From the NCBI GenBank assembly GCA_037147375.1, contig JBAWVI010000053.1, forward strand, positions 1 to 6,519: a stretch of DNA of 6,519 nucleotides, in the 5' to 3' direction. A program made the position numbers and the translations under genes. Source of the DNA: an archaeon. Lineage in GTDB: Archaea; Iainarchaeota; Iainarchaeia; Iainarchaeales; CSSED10-239. This document shows positions 1 through 6,519 of the stretch, piece by piece (position 1 is the first letter of the stretch; each line of letters begins with the position of its first letter). The notes beneath the pieces are model-generated. The model saw only the letters and a program-made list of their open reading frames with translations. It made no database searches and had not been told where the DNA came from.

Positions 1-5
1 ATAAG

Positions 6-3000
6 GTGATGCCTTCTTTCTTATTATTTATATTACTTATATTGATAATAATAGCTGCTATTGTATTGCTATTAATTCCAGCAATCTTTGTATCAGGAGC
101 AGGATATTATCAAGTTCAGTTTAAGGTTACTGATGCGATAACAGGAGCTGTGCTATCTGATGTTCCTTTAATGGTAACTAGCGATAAGGTTTACCAAGTT
201 TCTACAGATATTGAAGGATTAACTAATAGCGTGAATGTTAAGAAAGATCAGACCTTTTATGTGGATATAGACTTTGTAGATGAAGGATACACAAAGTATA
301 GTGGAGACTTCCAAGCAAATCAAAATAATAAGACCTTTGTAATACCTCTTGAATTATTGCAAGCATCTCTTGCAGATAAAGATTATGAATTTTCTATTGT
401 TAATAGAACAACAGGGCAATCAGTTACAGCTAATGGAAAAGCTACATTTAGATGTATGAACGGAGTTGGACTTCCTCCAAGTCCAGTAGACATCTTAAAT
501 GGTAAGATTAAAGTTTCAGCTGATCCTAATTGTTCACTTCTTGCAACAATCATTGCTGATGGATACAATCCAAAGTATGATACACCAGTTACAAATGGAA
601 CAATAAGCGTTTATTTAGATCCAACAACAGGAAGCTTTGAAGGTGGAACATACACAGTTACAGTTTACACAAAAGGAACAACTGGTGAAGCATTATCAAA
701 CATTAAAGTTGTTGCATACAATGATATTGGTGTTGAAGTTGCAAGTTGTATAACAAACACAGGTGGGAATTGTATACTTGAAAACGTAGCAACTGGAGAT
801 TACACTTTAAGATTAACAGATAATAGAAGTGTACCATTATATAGTAATTATACAGAAGCTCTTTATGTTGAATCAAATACTACAAAGTATATTGATATGA
901 CAACACAAGTTTCAGGTTATATTAAGATATTAGTTGTTGATAAAACAACAAATAATCCAATCAAGGATGCATATGTTGCATTAAAGGTTGCAGATAAAAT
1001 AATATCTGATAGTTATACAGATGTTGCTGGTGAAAAATTATTCACAGTTGCAGATAAAACATTAAATTATAGAGTTGTTGTTGATGCAAATGGATATATG
1101 ATAAAATCAACTGCAGTTACTGTATCAGACACAGTTCCAAGCACTCCAACAAAAATTAAATTAGAGCTTGTAACTCCTCAAACAATTGCAAAACTTAATA
1201 TTAGAGTTCTTGATGAACTTGGAAGAGGATATAGGTTTGCTAAGGTTGCACTTTATGATGCAGATACAGGATTCTTAACTGATTATAGACCTTTATTAAC
1301 AGACTATGATGGTAACGTAACCTTCCACATCACAAGTGGTAAGTATTATGCAGTTGCTATTAAAGGTGCATCAAGAGGAGATTCAGCAGTATTTGAATTT
1401 GATGTACGTCAAGCAGATACATATGATACAATTATAATTCCAATGAACATAACTAAAGGAACTTTAGTTATTAAAGTTGTAGATAAAGAAGGAGTAATAG
1501 TACCAAACGCAAGAGTTACTATTTATGATAGATATAGTTATTTTGGATTTAATCCACCAATTGCAATTAAATCAGATTTAACAAGCGCACTTGGAGAAAT
1601 TTCATTTGAGCTTGATGCAGAAAATGATTACTTTGCAGTTGTAACAGATTTAATTAATGAAAACCTTGGTACAGCACAATCAAAATTTATAAGAGTTGCA
1701 CCAAATGGAACTAAAGAATTAAAAGTTGTATTATATGATAAGGTATCATCTTTATCAAAACCAGAATTAAAATTATCTGGATTATACAAGGATGATTTAC
1801 TTGTTTCTGGAAACTTAAAACCAGGAAGCGAGTATGAAGCAAGATTTACTTTATTTGTTCCACAAGATAGATCAGGTAATGATAGATTCCAAGAAGTTGG
1901 AACAATTATAAGAACAGGTAATACAGTATATTTAGAAAACGATAATCTATATATTAAATCAATAGATGTTCCAAATGCAGTATCAATACAAAAGTTCACT
2001 CAATTTGATATGGTTAACCATAAGGTTGATGGAATATATGATTCAGATACCTTAACAGATGGAGATAGCAAATGGGCTAAAGTTGTTTTCGAAAAACCAA
2101 ACTATGTACTTGGAGAAGAATATCCAAACACATATGAAATTGTTGCAACTATAAAGGTTAGAGATAGTGCAGCTTTCGGAGAAGAATTAAAATTATTCTA
2201 CTTAGGTTATGGACTTAATAGAGATGATGATTATGAAACATATAATCCATATACAGGAAGTCAATCAGACATAGAATACTTTGATGTATATAGTCTTCAA
2301 ACATATGGAATTGGAGATGAAGTATTATGTTCAGATGATTTCTGTTATAGTGCAAATATGGTTGATGTTTCAGCTAACTTAAGATATGATGTTAGTACAA
2401 ACTTTTCAGCAGATCCTAATAAAAATTATAAATTACATTTCACATTAATTAATAATCAACAAGATAAGAGATACATTAATTCAAGATTGTTAATAGAGAA
2501 TGAAGATGAAGGAATAAATTTTAAGAATATTAAGATTGATTCTCCAAACGGTTCTCAAATAACAAGTAATATTCCATCAAATGAATATTCATTTGATTAT
2601 GCAATTTCAAGTCTTGATGCTAAACAAAAAGTTGAAGGAGATATTAATTTCACAACTGAATTAATTGGAGACAGACATATTGTTATTAAGTTTATTTCTG
2701 ATCAAAAAATATTATTTGTTCAGGACTTAGTAGTAACAGTAACTTCAAATAAGGAATTTATAACAGATATTACTCCTGAAGTAATACCTTCAAATAAATC
2801 ATTCTCTCTTCAAGTTGAAGCTAGAGATTCTTTAACAAATGTTGAAGTTAAAGATTCATACGTTGTTGTTAAAGATAGATTCTTTGATGTTTTAAGAACA
2901 GAGCCTATGGGTGTTCTTGGTGAAGTTTCAATTAATAATTTACCAGGACAGAATGCAGGAGATTCAATATATGTTTATGTTTCTGCACCAGAATACAAGA

Positions 3001-4985
3001 CATATGTTAAAGAAATTAAAATATCAGATACTTTATTTTCAATAACTCCTAAAAGATTAGGTTTCTCACTTAACATTAATAATGAAAGAACAAAAACAGA
3101 GAGCTTTACAATTACAAATTCATCTGAGCTTGATTTAGAGGTTGCAGATCTTGTAATTAAGGGAGAAAATCTAAACATAATAGATATTGATAGATTAAAT
3201 AATGAGCTTGCTGGTTACATAGGTTTAGTAATCAAAGGAATAGACACAAGTTCAAATACACCTGACAACAGTGACGCAACTAAAGTAATTGAAATGAGAC
3301 TTTCAGTTAACCCTAGAGCAGAAGGAATTACTGAAGTTCAAAACATGAAAGCTAAGCTTAAGGTTTCACTTCAAGCTAAAGGTGGAGCATCACCAACATG
3401 GGTTGTTGAGATACCAGTTGCAATAACAGTTGGATTTGATGGTGTAATGGATAATGCAGCTTGTCTTACATTAACAGAAACTGCTTGGAAAGATGTTTCA
3501 TTAGGTAAGCCTGTTGAAAAACAATTTATAGTTAATAATAGATGTACTATGAATGGAAAAACAGTTCCATTAACAGGTGGTCTTGAAGTTAAAATACAAT
3601 ATGATTCAAGTCCTCTTGGAAAATTTAGTGCAAACGTAAATAATAGATTACTTGAATTATCAAGTGGATATTATAAGACTGTTGTTGATTCAATGGACAG
3701 AGATGCAGGTTATCCTGTTGTTTTAAGATATGAGCCAACTGGAAGAATGCAAGGAAATATTAAAGGTAAGATTATCTTTAGATCAATGAATCCTACAACT
3801 GAAGGAAATCAAGAATTAATTGCAGAATATGCATTTGATATAAGTGTATTATCTCTTGAAGATTGTTATGTTGTTTCAAAGAAGGTATTAAACTTATATA
3901 AAGAACCAGACACATTTACAATTGATAATAAGGGTTGTGGAAAAGATACAACTTATAGATTATCATGTGATGATTGTAGAGGAATTGTAATTGAACCAAG
4001 AACAGAAATTGATGTTCCTGAAACTGGATCAAGTGGAACAATAACAGTTACTTCAAAGGATGCAATCCCTGGACAATATTTAATTAATATCTATTCAAAG
4101 ATTAAAGATGCAAGAGGATCTGAAATAAATGTTGGACAAGTTAAGGTTCAAGTAAGACCACTTGATAGTTGTCTTGATCTTGATAGATATGAGTTTGATT
4201 TATATAGAAGAAATGTTTCTGAGAACACTGGTGATGCAGTAAATGCTAAGTCATACGATACAGCAAACATAATCAACACATGTTATCAGCAAGAAATTAC
4301 TGGAAGCGGAAAGATTAAGGATAGTTCAAGGCTTGGAATGGCACTAATCGCTGCATTAAGAGATGGAGTGTACACATGGGCAGGATCAAGTCTTGTACAA
4401 TGGTTAGGAAAGAAAGAAGCAGATTCAAACTGTTCATTATGGGAAATAGCAATTGGAAAGAAGGGTGCTAAATGTTCAGCTCCAGCAGATAAAAGTATAT
4501 CTTCTGAGGATTCATCATTACTTACTGCTCAAGAAGAATTTAATCAAGCAAGTTCAGATTTAGCTTCATTGGATTGTACAAATATAGCAAATAAAGCAAA
4601 ATGTGATGAATTAAATGCAAAGAAAGTAGCTGCTCAAGAAAAAATTAATCAAGAAAATGCAAACTTAACTGAATATCAAAGATTAAATAAACAATATAAT
4701 GCACAATGTTATGATTCTAAAACAAACACAATAAGAAATACAAAAGAATGTAAAGATTTAGTTACACAAATTCAAACATTAGGTCCTGATCCAGAAGGTC
4801 CAGGTGTAAAATTTACTTGTGAAGGAGTAACTTGTATTGATGGACAAACTTGTAATCCAGAAAATGGAAATTGTGAAGATAATGCCATAAGTTCTCAAGC
4901 AAACAATACAACTACTGATCTTTGTGCAAATGTAACTTGTGCAGAAGGAGAATCATGTGATGCTTCAACAGGAGAATGTTCATAA
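6..4985 (+). CDS. Giant (1659 aa) N-terminally anchored or secreted cell-surface protein with tandem beta-sandwich and Ig-like domains, a C-terminal coiled coil and a Cys-rich tip; no catalytic motif recognised
   Basis: Uninterrupted 4980-nt ORF on the supplied track, ending at TAA 4983..4985. Codon bias is consistent along the whole length (AGA Arg, GGA Gly, GCA Ala, ACA Thr, CCA Pro). The protein shows clear periodic domain signatures. Candidate starts are GTG at 6 or ATG at 9. The frame is also open to the window edge (codon 3..5 is AAG), so the true start could lie upstream. Confidence 0.9.
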   Translation: MMPSFLLFILLILIIIAAIVLLLIPAIFVSGAGYYQVQFKVTDAITGAVLSDVPLMVTSDKVYQVSTDIEGLTNSVNVKKDQTFYVDIDFVDEGYTKYSGDFQANQNNKTFVIPLELLQASLADKDYEFSIVNRTTGQSVTANGKATFRCMNGVGLPPSPVDILNGKIKVSADPNCSLLATIIADGYNPKYDTPVTNGTISVYLDPTTGSFEGGTYTVTVYTKGTTGEALSNIKVVAYNDIGVEVASCITNTGGNCILENVATGDYTLRLTDNRSVPLYSNYTEALYVESNTTKYIDMTTQVSGYIKILVVDKTTNNPIKDAYVALKVADKIISDSYTDVAGEKLFTVADKTLNYRVVVDANGYMIKSTAVTVSDTVPSTPTKIKLELVTPQTIAKLNIRVLDELGRGYRFAKVALYDADTGFLTDYRPLLTDYDGNVTFHITSGKYYAVAIKGASRGDSAVFEFDVRQADTYDTIIIPMNITKGTLVIKVVDKEGVIVPNARVTIYDRYSYFGFNPPIAIKSDLTSALGEISFELDAENDYFAVVTDLINENLGTAQSKFIRVAPNGTKELKVVLYDKVSSLSKPELKLSGLYKDDLLVSGNLKPGSEYEARFTLFVPQDRSGNDRFQEVGTIIRTGNTVYLENDNLYIKSIDVPNAVSIQKFTQFDMVNHKVDGIYDSDTLTDGDSKWAKVVFEKPNYVLGEEYPNTYEIVATIKVRDSAAFGEELKLFYLGYGLNRDDDYETYNPYTGSQSDIEYFDVYSLQTYGIGDEVLCSDDFCYSANMVDVSANLRYDVSTNFSADPNKNYKLHFTLINNQQDKRYINSRLLIENEDEGINFKNIKIDSPNGSQITSNIPSNEYSFDYAISSLDAKQKVEGDINFTTELIGDRHIVIKFISDQKILFVQDLVVTVTSNKEFITDITPEVIPSNKSFSLQVEARDSLTNVEVKDSYVVVKDRFFDVLRTEPMGVLGEVSINNLPGQNAGDSIYVYVSAPEYKTYVKEIKISDTLFSITPKRLGFSLNINNERTKTESFTITNSSELDLEVADLVIKGENLNIIDIDRLNNELAGYIGLVIKGIDTSSNTPDNSDATKVIEMRLSVNPRAEGITEVQNMKAKLKVSLQAKGGASPTWVVEIPVAITVGFDGVMDNAACLTLTETAWKDVSLGKPVEKQFIVNNRCTMNGKTVPLTGGLEVKIQYDSSPLGKFSANVNNRLLELSSGYYKTVVDSMDRDAGYPVVLRYEPTGRMQGNIKGKIIFRSMNPTTEGNQELIAEYAFDISVLSLEDCYVVSKKVLNLYKEPDTFTIDNKGCGKDTTYRLSCDDCRGIVIEPRTEIDVPETGSSGTITVTSKDAIPGQYLINIYSKIKDARGSEINVGQVKVQVRPLDSCLDLDRYEFDLYRRNVSENTGDAVNAKSYDTANIINTCYQQEITGSGKIKDSSRLGMALIAALRDGVYTWAGSSLVQWLGKKEADSNCSLWEIAIGKKGAKCSAPADKSISSEDSSLLTAQEEFNQASSDLASLDCTNIANKAKCDELNAKKVAAQEKINQENANLTEYQRLNKQYNAQCYDSKTNTIRNTKECKDLVTQIQTLGPDPEGPGVKFTCEGVTCIDGQTCNPENGNCEDNAISSQANNTTTDLCANVTCAEGESCDASTGECS
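18..92 (+). other. N-terminal hydrophobic segment (aa 5-29, FLLFILLILIIIAAIVLLLIPAIFV): probable uncleaved signal anchor or very long signal-peptide h-region
   Basis: There are 25 consecutive apolar residues with no charge, followed by VSG/AG. At this length it looks more like a TM anchor than a cleaved signal peptide. No basic n-region is visible, which adds to doubt about the start position. Confidence 0.7.
105..1739 (+). repeat. Six tandem, diverged CarboxypepD_reg-like / prealbumin-fold beta-sandwich domains (protein-level repeat, period about 85-93 aa)
   Basis: Three motifs recur in register. First: h-x-V-x-V-x-D-(x)n-G-x-P-h-x-x-A-x-V-x-h, as in IKILVVDKTTNNPIKDAYVAL, LNIRVLDELGRGYRFAKVALY, LVIKVVDKEGVIVPNARVTIY and QVQFKVTDAITGAVLSDVPLMV. 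Second: TD-x-x-G-x-h-x-F, as in YTDVAGEKLFTV, LTDYDGNVTFHI and STDIEGLTNSV. Third: G/N-x-Y-x-h-x-h-x-x-x-GY, as in LNYRVVVDANGYM, SGKYYAVAIKGAS and GDYTLRLTDNRS. Approximate domain limits in aa are 34-117, 126-205, 214-298, 304-389, 395-480 and 485-578. The family assignment rests on motif recognition only. Confidence 0.7.
2802..3023 (+). repeat. Seventh, isolated CarboxypepD_reg-like beta-sandwich domain (aa 933-1006)
   Basis: FSLQVEARDSLTNVEVKDSYVVVKD ... MGVLGEVSINNLPGQNAGDSIYVYVSAPEYKTYVKEIKI reproduces the three motif blocks of the N-terminal array. Confidence 0.55.
3036..4163 (+). other. Three consecutive PapD/ASH-like Ig-fold modules (aa about 1011-1145, 1155-1283, 1287-1386)
   Basis: Each module opens with the signature h-x-F-x-h-x-N-x-(G/S)-x-x-x-h-x-h. 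The three instances are ESFTITNSSELDLEV, KQFIVNNRCTMNGKTVPL and DTFTIDNKGCGKDTTYRL. Alternating beta-strand patterns follow in each. The boundaries are approximate. Confidence 0.5.
4506..4781 (+). other. Predicted alpha-helical / coiled-coil stalk (aa about 1501-1592), Q/N/K/A/E-rich, with two embedded Cys pairs
   Basis: Apolar residues are spaced roughly as heptads (L1505, F1512, L1519, L1522, L1536, I1547, L1554, L1560) in a Pro/Gly-free stretch. Cys pairs are C1524/C1533 and C1568/C1582. The stretch ends at the GPDPEGPG linker. Confidence 0.5.
4818..4979 (+). repeat. Two C-terminal Cys-rich mini-modules with identical spacing C-x4-C-x5-C-x6-C
   Basis: Module A is CEGVTCIDGQTCNPENGNC (4818..4874). 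Module B is CANVTCAEGESCDASTGEC (4923..4979). They share V-T-C-x-[DE]-G-[QE]-[ST]-C and are separated by a 16-aa N/T/S-rich linker. The protein ends one residue after the last Cys. Confidence 0.8.
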
Positions 4986-4991
4986 ATAATA

Positions 4992-5000
4992 TTTATTATA
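4992..5000 (+). promoter_or_regulatory. TATA-box-like element (TTTATTATA) in the 42-nt spacer; possible archaeal-type internal promoter
   Basis: It resembles the archaeal TTTAWATA consensus and ends 27 nt upstream of the gene 2 ATG. The whole spacer is AT-rich, so a chance match is likely. If it is used, the Shine-Dalgarno at 5014..5018 would lie at or before the transcription start site, so the two calls partly exclude each other. Confidence 0.25.
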
Positions 5001-5013
5001 TTTGAAATAAAAT

Positions 5014-5018
5014 AGGTG
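5014..5018 (+). promoter_or_regulatory. Shine-Dalgarno-like AGGTG for gene 2
   Basis: AGGTG is complementary to the conserved 16S 3' tail (..CACCU..). Nine nt separate it from ATG 5028, which is within the usual spacing range. Confidence 0.55.
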
Positions 5019-5027
5019 TATGAAAAT

Positions 5028-5105
5028 ATGAGAGGAAAAAATTTAATTTGGACAATTGCGATAGCAATTATAACTTTAATGATCTTTGCAGGAACTGTTC
5101 ATGCT
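5028..5105 (+). other. Sec-type signal peptide of gene 2 (aa 1-26, MRGKNLIWTIAIAIITLMIFAGTVHA | AC...)
   Basis: It has a basic n-region (R2, K4), a 16-residue h-region and a V-H-A motif at -3/-1. Alternative reading: cleavage directly before C28 (lipoprotein-like), but H at -3 does not fit a canonical lipobox. Confidence 0.75.
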
Positions 5106-6519
5106 GCGTGTAATCCGGCATGTTCTGGTGCAACACCAAATTGTGTAAATGATAAGTGTGCTGCACAACCTGATCCACAACCTGCAAAAGCTGAATCCCA
5201 GAATATAGTTAGTGGACTTCTTGGAGGAGGTAGCGGAAATGTTCTTGGAGGAGTTCTTGGTGCTGTTACAGGTATCATTGACAAACTTGTTGGAGCAAAC
5301 CCACTCATACATGGACTTATTGGAGCAGCAATCTCTGGATTTTCAACTTATAGTAAATTAGACACAACTGTTGACTTCGTACTTACAAAAGATATGGTTA
5401 ATATATCTGGAGCAGAAACAGACTTTATTGATAACCCAACAGATATGGGTGCAGAAGATTATAAAACATATGGAGATGCATTGTACACAAATAAATTACA
5501 AGCATGTGATTATACAAGTAGAAATGCACCTATTAAATGTACTAATATGATAATAACTGATAAAAACATATTAGATATTGAATTTATTAAAACAAAACCT
5601 CTTAATGATCCTGAATTTATGAAGGATAATCTAAAAAAGAATCCAACATTTAGACTTGCAGAAGAAACAGAAGTTCTTGAACTTACAAATCTTGATGGAA
5701 ATAATGTAACTGGACAAAAGAGAGGTATTCTTTTCGAGGATGCAAACAAAACAATAGTTAATAGTTATGAATTTAGATACTTAATTGCAAGATATAATAA
5801 AGCTACATACACTAATAATATTGAAATAGAATTAAGAACATCAGACTTACTTGCAAACGGAATGTGGATGACTTATTTATTAATGCCATTCTCATCAGGT
5901 AAGAGCTTCTTAACACTTGATAAAGTTCTTCAAAATAATAAAGCTAAAGAAATTATAAATGATGTTAGAACAATAGACACTGTAACACAACCATTCCATT
6001 TACAATTTAATTCATGGACAACTGATGCTAATAAATCACTTGATTTAACACAACTTGATTGTCTAAATGAATCAGGTCAAGCACTTGGAACAACAGGAAC
6101 AGAAATACTTCCTAAAGTCTCATTTGATTGGCAATTTAATGCACACACATCAACAGCAATCAATGGTACTCAATTAAAGAATAATGAATGGTGTGATACT
6201 GATGCATCAGGAAAAACAAAGAATGGAATTTATTGTGATGCAACACAATTCTCAATTGAATTAATGCATAAATTAAATGCAATAGATACTTATGTAAAAG
6301 CACATTCAACTCAGTTTGTTTGTCCAACTCCAGGAGTTACACAAAAGCTTGTAACTGACATAAATAATTTTGGAATAACAAAATTGAATTCTGAATATGA
6401 TGGAATAAGAAATTTAACTATTAATTATATAGTTGATGGTAACTATGATTCAAACTTAATGGTTGCACCATTATATTCAATTGAATTTAAAATATATAAG
6501 ATGAATGCTGGAAATTGGA
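5028..6519 (+). CDS. Secreted protein, 3'-truncated by the window edge (at least 497 aa): signal peptide, 4-Cys module, Pro-rich linker, glycine zipper, large unassigned Cys-paired domain
   Basis: Translated by hand in the frame of ATG 5028; there is no stop codon through 6518 (last full codon TGG 6516..6518). It is missing from the ORF track only because it lacks an in-window stop. Codon bias matches gene 1, there is a Shine-Dalgarno upstream, and the N-terminus is a textbook signal peptide. The upstream ATG at 5020 is out of frame and stops after 3 codons. Confidence 0.85.
   Translation, partial: MRGKNLIWTIAIAIITLMIFAGTVHAACNPACSGATPNCVNDKCAAQPDPQPAKAESQNIVSGLLGGGSGNVLGGVLGAVTGIIDKLVGANPLIHGLIGAAISGFSTYSKLDTTVDFVLTKDMVNISGAETDFIDNPTDMGAEDYKTYGDALYTNKLQACDYTSRNAPIKCTNMIITDKNILDIEFIKTKPLNDPEFMKDNLKKNPTFRLAEETEVLELTNLDGNNVTGQKRGILFEDANKTIVNSYEFRYLIARYNKATYTNNIEIELRTSDLLANGMWMTYLLMPFSSGKSFLTLDKVLQNNKAKEIINDVRTIDTVTQPFHLQFNSWTTDANKSLDLTQLDCLNESGQALGTTGTEILPKVSFDWQFNAHTSTAINGTQLKNNEWCDTDASGKTKNGIYCDATQFSIELMHKLNAIDTYVKAHSTQFVCPTPGVTQKLVTDINNFGITKLNSEYDGIRNLTINYIVDGNYDSNLMVAPLYSIEFKIYKMNAGNW
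5109..5159 (+). other. 4-Cys mini-module at the mature N-terminus of gene 2 (CNPACSGATPNCVNDKC; C-x3-C-x6-C-x4-C) followed by the QPDPQP linker
   Basis: Read directly from the translation. Its size, the CNP tripeptide, the C-x6-C loop and the adjacent PDP linker echo the C-terminal modules of gene 1, although the overall Cys spacing differs. Confidence 0.7.
5214..5339 (+). other. Glycine-zipper hydrophobic segment (aa 63-104) with a perfect GxxxGxxxGxxxG core
   Basis: The sequence is GLLGGGSGNVLGGVLGAVTGIIDKLVGANPLIHGLIGAAISG. The core is G70-NVL-G74-GVL-G78-AVT-G82 (5235..5273). Its composition resembles glycine-zipper membrane segments of the SlyB/17-kDa-antigen type. The locally elevated GC explains the spurious antisense ORFs here. 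Confidence 0.65.

Follow-up and report, generated by a model that had tools for sequence, protein, structure and literature searches.

The two genes that fill the contig JBAWVI010000053.1 (assembly GCA_037147375.1, Iainarchaeota), an entire 6519-bp contig of a metagenome-assembled genome (MAG) that is referred to below as the window, are, by sequence comparison, the halves of one ancestral ~2500–2600-aa protein that was split in the hypervariable linker between its stalk and its head. The window itself is a piece of a conserved ~33-kb cluster consisting of four giant paralogues and a pilin-like gene. According to the interpretation that we favor, with a probability of roughly 60%, the pair encodes a split anchor–stalk–head surface fibril that is reassembled outside the cell and is probably adhesive. 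In the original prediction, made from the letters of the window, the pair had been considered as a self-contained module in which gene 2 supplied a separate membrane-perturbing partner of a giant stalked protein. Neither view could be kept, as the module turned out to be a fragment of the larger cluster and a single gene in relatives, and the gene 2 product to be the head and neck of the same ancestral polypeptide. At the same time, the functional link between the two products is stronger than had been supposed, because both genes are one gene in these relatives.

The collinearity of the two products with single fused proteins was established by blastp. Residues 60–1473 of the gene 1 product (D in the cluster order given below) aligned to residues 71–1457 of the fused protein P0038 (27% identity, E = 5e-125), and residues 312–1002 of P0015, a full-length orthologue of the gene 2 product (E), aligned to residues 1929–2603 of the same protein (27%, E = 5e-57). 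The same collinear pattern was obtained with P0036, P0045, P0014, and P0030. The matches of gene 1 to P0038, P0045, and P0036 extended over ~1400 aa at 26–27% identity (E = 1e-116 to 5e-125); the fragment of gene 2 retained in the window matched the fused proteins through its residues ~310–470 with E = 1e-12 to 2e-18, and the full-length P0015 did so with E = 1e-53 to 5e-65. Additionally, the first ~1450 aa of gene 1 are shared, at 21–23% identity, by both giant neighbors, C (~2390 aa) and F (~2470 aa), and the final ~700–900 aa of F have their homologues in the gene 2 family (tblastn/blastp).

The gene order in the clade of the window is A(~2690)-B(~570)-C(~2390)-D(1600–1870)-E(960–1025)-F(~2470), with product lengths in amino acids, and in locus L043 it is A(2804)-B(583)-C(2391)-[P0045, fused, 2502 aa]-F(2320); the best matches between L043 and the clade run position-for-position. 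The gene 1 orthologues in L003 (89% identity) and L001 (75%) lie between C and F, just as the fused P0045 does in L043, and the window itself covers only D and half of E. D and E were found directly adjacent in ~12 species-level loci, including the complete genome of Candidatus Forterrea multitransposorum (L011, CP045477.1), where D, E, and F encode 1867, 964, and 2466 aa, with 45% and 39–45% identity to the window genes. Thus, the co-occurrence of the two homologues as neighbors, which had been proposed as a check of the original prediction, is conserved. In the lineage of L004 and L007, two extra genes stand between D and E (L004:14911-19742, equal to L007:4880-9711). They encode products of 279 and 1325–1329 aa with signal-like N-termini and no family, and the 279-aa product resembles part of the tail of the L009 D protein (36% over ~106 aa), giving the impression of a further split in the linker.

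A second split of the same kind was detected in L044, where a D gene of 1840 aa (L044:2462-7984) and an E gene of 983 aa (L044:8001-10952) are separated by a 16-nt gap containing no Ns. The L044 halves are 42–43% identical to the fused P0038 and only 26% identical to the window pair. Because the L044 pair is nearer to fused P0038 than to the window pair, fission (or fusion) has occurred at the same linker at least twice, and in both splits the head half carries its own signal peptide. Candidate splits in L022 (~9400-9500), L024 (~7000-7100), and L040 (~10400-10600) were rejected as runs of N. These runs, masked or scaffold gaps, fall exactly in the variable linker.

The features of the window, with coordinates in nt and the strand, are the following:

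3..4985, + strand: gene 1 (D), 5'-truncated coding sequence of the anchor and stalk half (open reading frame (ORF) listing; product identical to P0001)
9..92, + strand: predicted N-terminal transmembrane signal-anchor, MPSFLLFILLILIIIAAIVLLLIPAIFV (Kyte-Doolittle hydropathy (KD) maximum 3.8)
105..1739, + strand: five to six tandem prealbumin/CarboxypepD_reg-like beta-sandwich domains of ~85–95 aa each, aa 33–577 (Pfam, hhalign)
1776..4319, + strand: aa 590–1437, all-beta array formed by ~7 more beta-sandwich domains, with conserved Cys pairs (AlphaFold2 (AF2), DSSP)
4320..4409, + strand: conserved amphipathic helix A, SSRLGMALIAALRDGVYTWAGSSLVQWLGKK, aa 1438–1467 (AF2 model residues 849–878; alignment)
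4410..4982, + strand: hypervariable C-terminal tail, aa 1468–1658 (motif scan, AF2, orthologue comparison)
4986..5027, + strand: intergenic spacer of 42 nt with a Shine-Dalgarno-like GGTG and the TATA-like TTTATTATA (sequence)
5028..6519, + strand: gene 2 (E), 3'-truncated coding sequence of the neck and head half (translation; identity to the L003 and L001 genes)
5028..5105, + strand: predicted signal peptide, MRGKNLIWTIAIAIITLMIFAGTVHA|A, ending VHA|A (hydrophobic segment with KD 2.4, small-x-small site)
5109..5159, + strand: small four-Cys module, CNPACSGATPNCVNDKC, CX3CX6CX4C, aa 28–44 (motif scan)
5205..5279, + strand: glycine zipper, IVSGLLGGGSGNVLGGVLGAVTGII, GxxxG x5 (sequence)
5283..5351, + strand: conserved helix B, KLVGANPLIHGLIGAAISGFSTY, neck element directly before the head (alignment)
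5355..6518, + strand: N-terminal ~390 aa of a ~900-aa globular head (AF2 model of the orthologue P0015)

Export of both products, assumed from the start, was borne out at the level of prediction by the 28-aa hydrophobic segment of gene 1 and the signal peptide of gene 2 listed above. In the gene 1 product, residues 1–28 are strongly hydrophobic and form the sole such segment of the protein, so that hydropathy predicts one N-terminal transmembrane helix and, with it, surface anchoring. In full-length relatives this helix is preceded by a conserved ~33-aa cytoplasmic motif, FYYxLEDKYYxF…YKITDKIDKV, which is kept in the D, C, and F paralogues and in P0002 and lies beyond the contig start in the case of gene 1.

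The architecture of an anchor followed by a beta-sandwich rod, as originally read from the gene 1 sequence, was retained; the domain count was not, and hhalign and AF2 suggest that the rod consists of about 13 beta-sandwich domains rather than 10. Its sole family match is to Pfam PF13620 (CarboxypepD_reg) at aa 307–379 (E = 2.2e-11), which is also the only match bearing on the earlier statement that neither product has an enzymatic or known adhesin signature, a statement that stood. Comparison of the repeat slices by hhalign gave 91% for d1-d4, 83% for d3-d6, 94% for d4-d6, and 95% for d5-d6, with d2 being weak. For the second part of the rod, the AF2 model m57fb04569d05 (38-sequence alignment) has a predicted local distance difference test score (pLDDT) of ~88 over aa 590–1455, DSSP assigns strands throughout, and invariant Cys are present in the D family alignment (12 orthologues). 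Foldseek with the aa 590–1455 array returned only multi-Ig arrays with TM-scores (template modeling scores) of 0.1–0.2, among them hydin-like ciliary proteins, the MG domains of A2M/C3, PrgB, SbsB, and Nup210.

Helix A is the last conserved element of the D family: it is kept in 12/12 D orthologues, conservation ends after it, and its counterpart follows the rod in the fused proteins too. The gene 1 tail beyond it may be helical, with many A, E, K, Q, and N residues, and contains 14 Cys, including two CX4CX2GX2CX6C modules (nt 4818–4874 and 4923–4979). A helical stalk had been placed here; it could not be confirmed, because the pLDDT is <50 over the tail, where the multiple alignment gives no coverage. 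The tail cannot be aligned with that of P0002, which is (GDAGA)n, despite the 89% identity of the two orthologues. In P0003 (75% identical), the tail is Asn/Pro-rich and ends in a Cadherin domain (PF00028, E = 4.8e-11) scoring above the Pfam cut-off.

In the gene 2 product, the Cys module and the glycine zipper that had been noticed are indeed present as motifs; the supposed relationship of this module to the Cys modules of the gene 1 tail, as a conserved pairing, did not hold. The four-Cys module was found only in the three closest E proteins and is absent from those of L004–L006 (38–47% identity), and at the gene 1 end the 89% orthologue has (GDAGA)n and the 75% orthologue a cadherin domain. 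The two sets of modules as a conserved docking pair were therefore rejected, being not kept across orthologues. A signal-peptide-like N-terminus is common to every standalone E protein, and E proteins have no C-terminal anchor.

The zipper glycines G66, G70, G74, G78, and G82 follow one another at i+4 spacing (a perfect GxxxG x5), with a KD of at most 1.62 over 19 aa, which is borderline for a transmembrane segment, and with AF2 confidence <50. No Pfam family, Gly-zipper families included, matched gene 2 even at E <= 1. An intact motif is confined to the closest relatives; in the E orthologues of L004–L006 it is degenerate. A Gly-rich stretch in a different register also precedes the head in the fused P0038 (…GGAMGGIGSLIGSGNPFTTALTMFIAGTLMAY) and in the split L044 protein (…GGLLGGVLGSMGSIIGSNDP…). 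Helix B, with the invariant residues K86, G89, P92, H95, G96, S103, and T107, has an equivalent, 'G.NP…G…Y', in the fused P0036, P0038, and P0045. The alignments thus present the zipper together with helix B as the ancestral neck before the head. This also removes the zipper as a mark of a separate partner, as zipper and conserved helix occur inside fused proteins as well, directly before the head.

Between helix A and helix B of the fused proteins lies a region that varies greatly in both length and content. It is long and Cys-, Gly-, or acid-rich in P0036, P0038, and P0045. Among the fused paralogues of ~2300–2480 aa, about half show a short and strongly hydrophobic pair of helices here instead (KD up to 2.96), with W-C-P-x-C between the two and D-D-P-C after them, directly preceding the head (P0043 aa 1522-1562, P0071 aa 1489-1541, P0042 aa 1457-1521, P0014 aa 1507-1543, and ~15 others). 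Because the flanks of this stretch are acidic, an out-in-out hairpin is suggested. The split in the window falls within this linker, and the gene 1 tail and the Cys module of gene 2 are its two stubs.

The head was modeled through P0015 (68% identity), for which AF2 with a 46-sequence alignment gave a mean pLDDT of 80 and a predicted template modeling score (pTM) of 0.63; aa 330–1006 are mostly at pLDDT >90, and the neck (aa 16–93) is at <50. The predicted head is a compact multi-subdomain body composed of an alpha+beta subdomain, a Cys-rich YCDATQF region, an Ig-like sandwich, and two more alpha/beta and beta-rich regions. The part encoded in the window comprises the alpha+beta subdomain, the Cys-rich YCDATQF helix region, and the start of the Ig-like sandwich. 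The invariant acidic/aromatic motifs of the head are DGYSxDFxxDFDxYY, RxGYG, and YCDATQF. The ~900-aa head resembles no known family: Pfam, NCBIfam, PHROGs, and PDB-sequence profiles gave no match to it (6- and 23-member alignments; 23 family members), and whole-chain Foldseek against PDB and BFVD aligned only the ~120-aa Ig-like subdomain. A weak sequence match of the head to ASF1 (E ~0.8) was discarded, as it corresponds to the same Ig-like sandwich.

Taken as a mechanism, the favored interpretation would run as follows. The gene 1 product would be held in the cell membrane by its N-terminal signal-anchor and would project a stalk of ~13 beta-sandwich domains, at the distal end of which helix A and a free, fast-changing tail are expected. 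The gene 2 product, exported on its own signal peptide, would consist of the neck (zipper and helix B) and the ~900-aa globular head. After export, its neck would dock onto the distal end of the gene 1 product, most likely through packing of helix A with the zipper and helix B, the elements that flank the linker in the fused proteins. Docking would restore a fibril of anchor, stalk, and head, and contact with another cell or surface could be made by its head and its variable tail, so that a putative role in attachment is probable.

The stalk in this scheme is supported by Pfam, hhalign, AF2, and Foldseek, and the head is compact and confidently modeled. In favor of docking, helix A and helix B are conserved and the sequence between them is not. 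An adhesive role is hinted at by the Cadherin domain of P0003, the diversification of the tails, the tandem paralogues with different heads, and the architecture as a whole. Moreover, host interaction is attributed to the 'large extracellular proteins' of Ca. Forterrea in its genome paper, where they are taken to mediate interaction with other organisms (PMC5905446).

Several points weigh against the same scheme. The adhesive role, the localization, and the co-expression of the two products are read from sequence, and no recognized adhesive or lectin domain was found in the head or elsewhere in the window proteins with Pfam and NCBIfam. AF2 confidence is low for precisely the docking elements (pLDDT <50 for E aa 16–93 and ~60–75 for helix A of D). 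The tail changes freely even at 89% identity, which argues that it is not a specific docking module, and after the fission E could have become independent. Finally, about half of the fused paralogues have the strongly hydrophobic stalk–head junction described above. Insertion of this junction by the translocon into the membrane of the cell itself is probable, and therefore an arch with a membrane-proximal head, rather than an extended fibril, would be expected for them. Geometry is thus the main uncertainty of the split-fibril interpretation.

The same hairpins keep alive another reading, one that we regard as unlikely, in which the giant paralogues A, C, D+E, and F are structural rather than adhesive and form a stalked canopy or coat similar to a surface layer (S-layer), with the head layer kept at a fixed distance from the membrane as in SlaB/SlaA or tetrabrachion of Thermoproteota. 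In many fused paralogues, both ends of the stalk would be fastened to the membrane by the hairpins; the order and content of the cluster are conserved across the recovered loci (mostly Iainarchaeota-labelled), and ~3–4% of the ~0.84–1 Mb genomes is spent on it; heads are conserved to the same degree as stalks (68–82% vs 75–89% among close pairs, with both at ~26–28% among distant ones); and the S-layer protein SbsB is among the Foldseek matches of the stalk. However, SbsB is only one of many such matches, with a TM-score of ~0.1, no S-layer family match was obtained for D, E, C, F, or B in Pfam or NCBIfam, and the hypervariable tails, one of which carries a cadherin domain, would be more in keeping with interaction than with the building of a lattice. 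Moreover, in a preprint, a different 1039-aa protein (A0A2G9N319) is assigned as the S-layer protein of Iainarchaeota (10.1101/2024.05.28.596244). It is improbable that the gene 2 product is instead an independent secreted membrane-active factor, with the zipper oligomerizing in or inserting into the host membrane and gene 1 giving only reach. Such a factor would agree with the perfect GxxxG x5 motif, its borderline hydrophobicity (KD 1.62), the own signal peptide and missing anchor of the product, and the truly transmembrane-like hairpins at the same position in fused paralogues; cultured DPANN archaea, too, depend on direct cell contact with a host. It is contradicted by the degeneration of the zipper in E orthologues at 38–47% identity, by its place inside fused proteins as a neck element, by the missing Pfam glycine-zipper match, and by the bulk of the protein, a 900-aa globular head that is not pore-former-like and for which Foldseek found no toxin or fusogen.

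The large, compact, and well-conserved head with its three invariant motifs might also be a novel hydrolase or lyase held on the stalk, with, for example, a polymer of the host envelope as its substrate. In L004, the B-to-F genes have a Peptidase_M6 gene upstream of them, and weak, low-probability Foldseek alignments of the head to GH66 and GH2 enzymes were obtained. These alignments have TM-scores of only ~0.1, the Ig-like accessory domain alone aligns at probability 1, and no catalytic family or motif was recognized in Pfam, NCBIfam, or PDB profiles, so we consider a surface-displayed enzyme quite improbable. Least of all can the pair be explained as viral or mobile-element fibre genes, for which a short, isolated contig with Ig-like repeat proteins could speak: PHROGs gave 0 matches, BFVD gave only Ig-like domains, and the orthologues are chromosomal, at a fixed position with housekeeping neighbors, which effectively refutes this origin. 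A more speculative reading, to which we give little credence, concerns the stalk–head junction as a membrane-engaging device, in which hairpins with a WCPxC turn (many fused paralogues) or the zipper and helix B (split proteins) would insert into the host membrane on contact. The head would then act on or through the host membrane, and the splitting would reflect selection for a releasable, host-inserted subunit. If true, this junction would be the first candidate machinery for DPANN intercellular bridges or nutrient uptake.

Bacterial fibrillar adhesins, to which the split fibril may be compared, include the RTX type (MpIBP, LapA, SiiE) and the Gram-positive stalk type with SpaA, SdrD_B, or Big domains. 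The proteins described here resemble them in having an anchor at one end, a tandem Ig-like/prealbumin-like spacer, and a non-repetitive far module, and weak Pfam matches to stalk families of bacterial adhesins (SpaA, SdrD_B, Big_1) were obtained. They differ in anchoring, which is by an N-terminal transmembrane helix with a conserved cytoplasmic motif and not by a type I secretion system, sortase, or outer-membrane plug, as well as in the head without a known ligand-binding domain, the two exported chains, and the hydrophobic Gly-rich junction helices. Among the features by which fibrillar adhesins are recognized, a predicted anchor and a stalk were found in the window proteins, and a recognized adhesive domain was not.

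The SPEARE proteins of Ca. Nanohaloarchaeum antarcticus reportedly carry protease, adhesion, and nuclease-type domains and are said to have been proposed as mediators of host contact. They are likewise very large, exported, multi-domain proteins of a reduced-genome, host-dependent archaeon; however, no sequence relationship to them was detected, and no protease, adhesion, or nuclease-type domains were found here. Two-component stalked S-layers offer another parallel: in Sulfolobales a SlaB stalk bears a SlaA canopy, and tetrabrachion of Staphylothermus is one precursor cut into two chains, which illustrates that one precursor can work as two chains. In common with these, a membrane-anchored stalk and a separately made or separated outer protein are encoded together. 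In contrast, there is no homology, their anchors are C-terminal, and their stalks are coiled coils. The window proteins match no S-layer, glycine-zipper, or phage-fibre family in Pfam, NCBIfam, and PHROGs.

By sequence similarity, then, the window pair is a member of an otherwise unnamed giant stalk–head family in Iainarchaeota-type loci. Neither protein has a strong match to a characterized family, the result that the original prediction had left to a homology check, and its view of uncharacterized surface proteins was supported. As far as could be found, the literature mentions this family only generically. The 'large extracellular proteins' of Ca. Forterrea multitransposorum belong to the same protein family and have the same gene order as the window, and in the accessible text of the paper (PMC5905446) they are uncharacterized, with no anatomy, family definition, or split/fused relationship given. 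Giant stalked surface proteins are a familiar kind, and the finding alone reveals no new mechanism; what is unusual here is that the head is novel, the junction hydrophobic or Gly-rich, and the N-terminal cytoplasmic motif conserved, and that the split evolved twice. Iainarchaeota are uncultured DPANN archaea with ~1-Mb genomes, and a 6.5-kb contig has been turned into a defined family with an anchor, a ~13-domain stalk, a hypervariable linker, and a ~900-aa head. The natural split indicates a point at which the protein can be divided and a pair of pieces expected to bind each other, and so provides a handle for structural and binding studies.

Iainarchaeota are a phylum of the DPANN kingdom Nanobdellati, and the supposition that the contig comes from a low-GC, small-genome archaeon proved correct, its relatives being labelled Iainarchaeum, Diapherotrites, and Ca. 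Forterrea. The locus scan, which covered one genome per GTDB species, gave 35 loci, nearly all labelled Iainarchaeum, Diapherotrites, Forterrea, or unnamed 'archaeon'. Iainarchaeota-type giant genes are also carried by L030 (JAFCCH010000027.1, 'Thaumarchaeota archaeon') and L032 (JAFCCG010000009.1, 'Chloroflexi bacterium'), which are probably mis-binned; the match pattern of L032 is nearly the same as that of L027, labelled Iainarchaeum. An index-free phmmer search of 1.84 billion 50% representatives detected 94 gene 2 relatives at E <= 1e-3, which align mostly at aa ~1650–2100 of 2300–2700-aa proteins, and gene 2 relatives exist on JGI/ENA contigs as well. Note that a word-indexed homologue search with gene 2, whole or without its Gly-rich N-terminus, gave 0 matches, a false negative according to phmmer and BLASTP.

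The position of the orthologues is fixed, on chromosomal contigs of 0.3–0.98 Mb as well as in the case of a complete 840-kb genome, and their loci adjoin housekeeping genes, such as those for Lon and a class I tRNA synthetase. The coding capacity of the cluster is ~11,000 aa (~33 kb). Because ~3–4% of genomes of 0.84–0.98 Mb (~1 Mb) is spent on it, the cluster is likely to have a central role in the dealings of the cell with its surroundings or its host.

The ORFs of the window fill the plus strand, those on the minus strand are all short, and the GC content is 27–37%. The gene 1 product is identical to NCBI P0001 ('MAG: hypothetical protein WCF78_03755 [archaeon]'). Counted from the ATG at nt 9, as all gene 1 residues are numbered here, it has 1658 aa, with the stop at 4983–4985. 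Gene 1 lacks ~31 N-terminal codons, because its frame is open to base 1, nt 3–8 encoding K-V ahead of this ATG, and the orthologue P0002 has 31 extra residues, MGLKEFYYSLEDRYYKFVERTGLYKITDRID, preceding KVMPSFLL. In the NCBI record, the protein (1639 aa) begins 19 residues past the ATG at nt 9, at an internal codon; because the ORF is open to the 5' end of the contig (window 3-65), it should be annotated as 5'-partial. Gene 2 starts with the ATG at 5028 and runs off the 3' end of the contig, with 497 codons of ~1010 aa present. Its full-length relatives have ~1007–1023 aa, and ~510 C-terminal codons are lost from the window copy; the genes following the gene 1 orthologues in L003 and L001 encode 1018 and 1007 aa with 82% and 68% identity to gene 2, respectively, over its whole length.

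The co-directional arrangement of the two genes at a distance of 42 nt, with an SD-like GGTG (5015–5018, 9 nt ahead of the gene 2 ATG) and no terminator between them, was confirmed. A scan of 4700–5300 gave no intrinsic-terminator-like site, and shuffled sequences fold about as well as the intergenic RNA (z = -0.27), which forms no stable hairpin, so that the genes are probably co-transcribed. At the same time, the TATA-like TTTATTATA at 4992–5000 would be compatible with an internal archaeal promoter, and in 30%-GC DNA such a match may well be due to chance. No tRNA or Rfam family was found in the window. Gene 1 contains, at window 2841-2891, 2.4 copies of a 21-nt tandem repeat (76% matches), which is probably insignificant.

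Among the other genes of the cluster, B encodes ~570 aa (L001:856-2601; L004:913-2670; L005:1114-2790; L006:1066-2781; L043:803-2554), and the N-terminus of its product, K/R-G-F-(N/S)-L-F-T-A-L-V-S-L, has the appearance of a class III (type IV pilin-like) signal peptide. A sub-threshold, weak NCBIfam match to the N-terminus of the minor pilin ComGF was obtained (E = 0.004), and the remainder has no family. C (L001:2784-9944) shares the stalk, and A carries CarboxypepD_reg matches (A ends at L005:2-856, L006:2-991, and L043:1-781). The C-terminal regions of C and A are unrelated to the E-type head and to each other, and therefore the cluster has at least three kinds of heads; standalone relatives of the C-type head were found in L013–L015. 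The Peptidase_M6 gene of L004 stands at the edge of that locus. In L043, gene F is followed by genes for five small (87–142 aa), very hydrophobic polytopic membrane proteins (L043:24558-26293).

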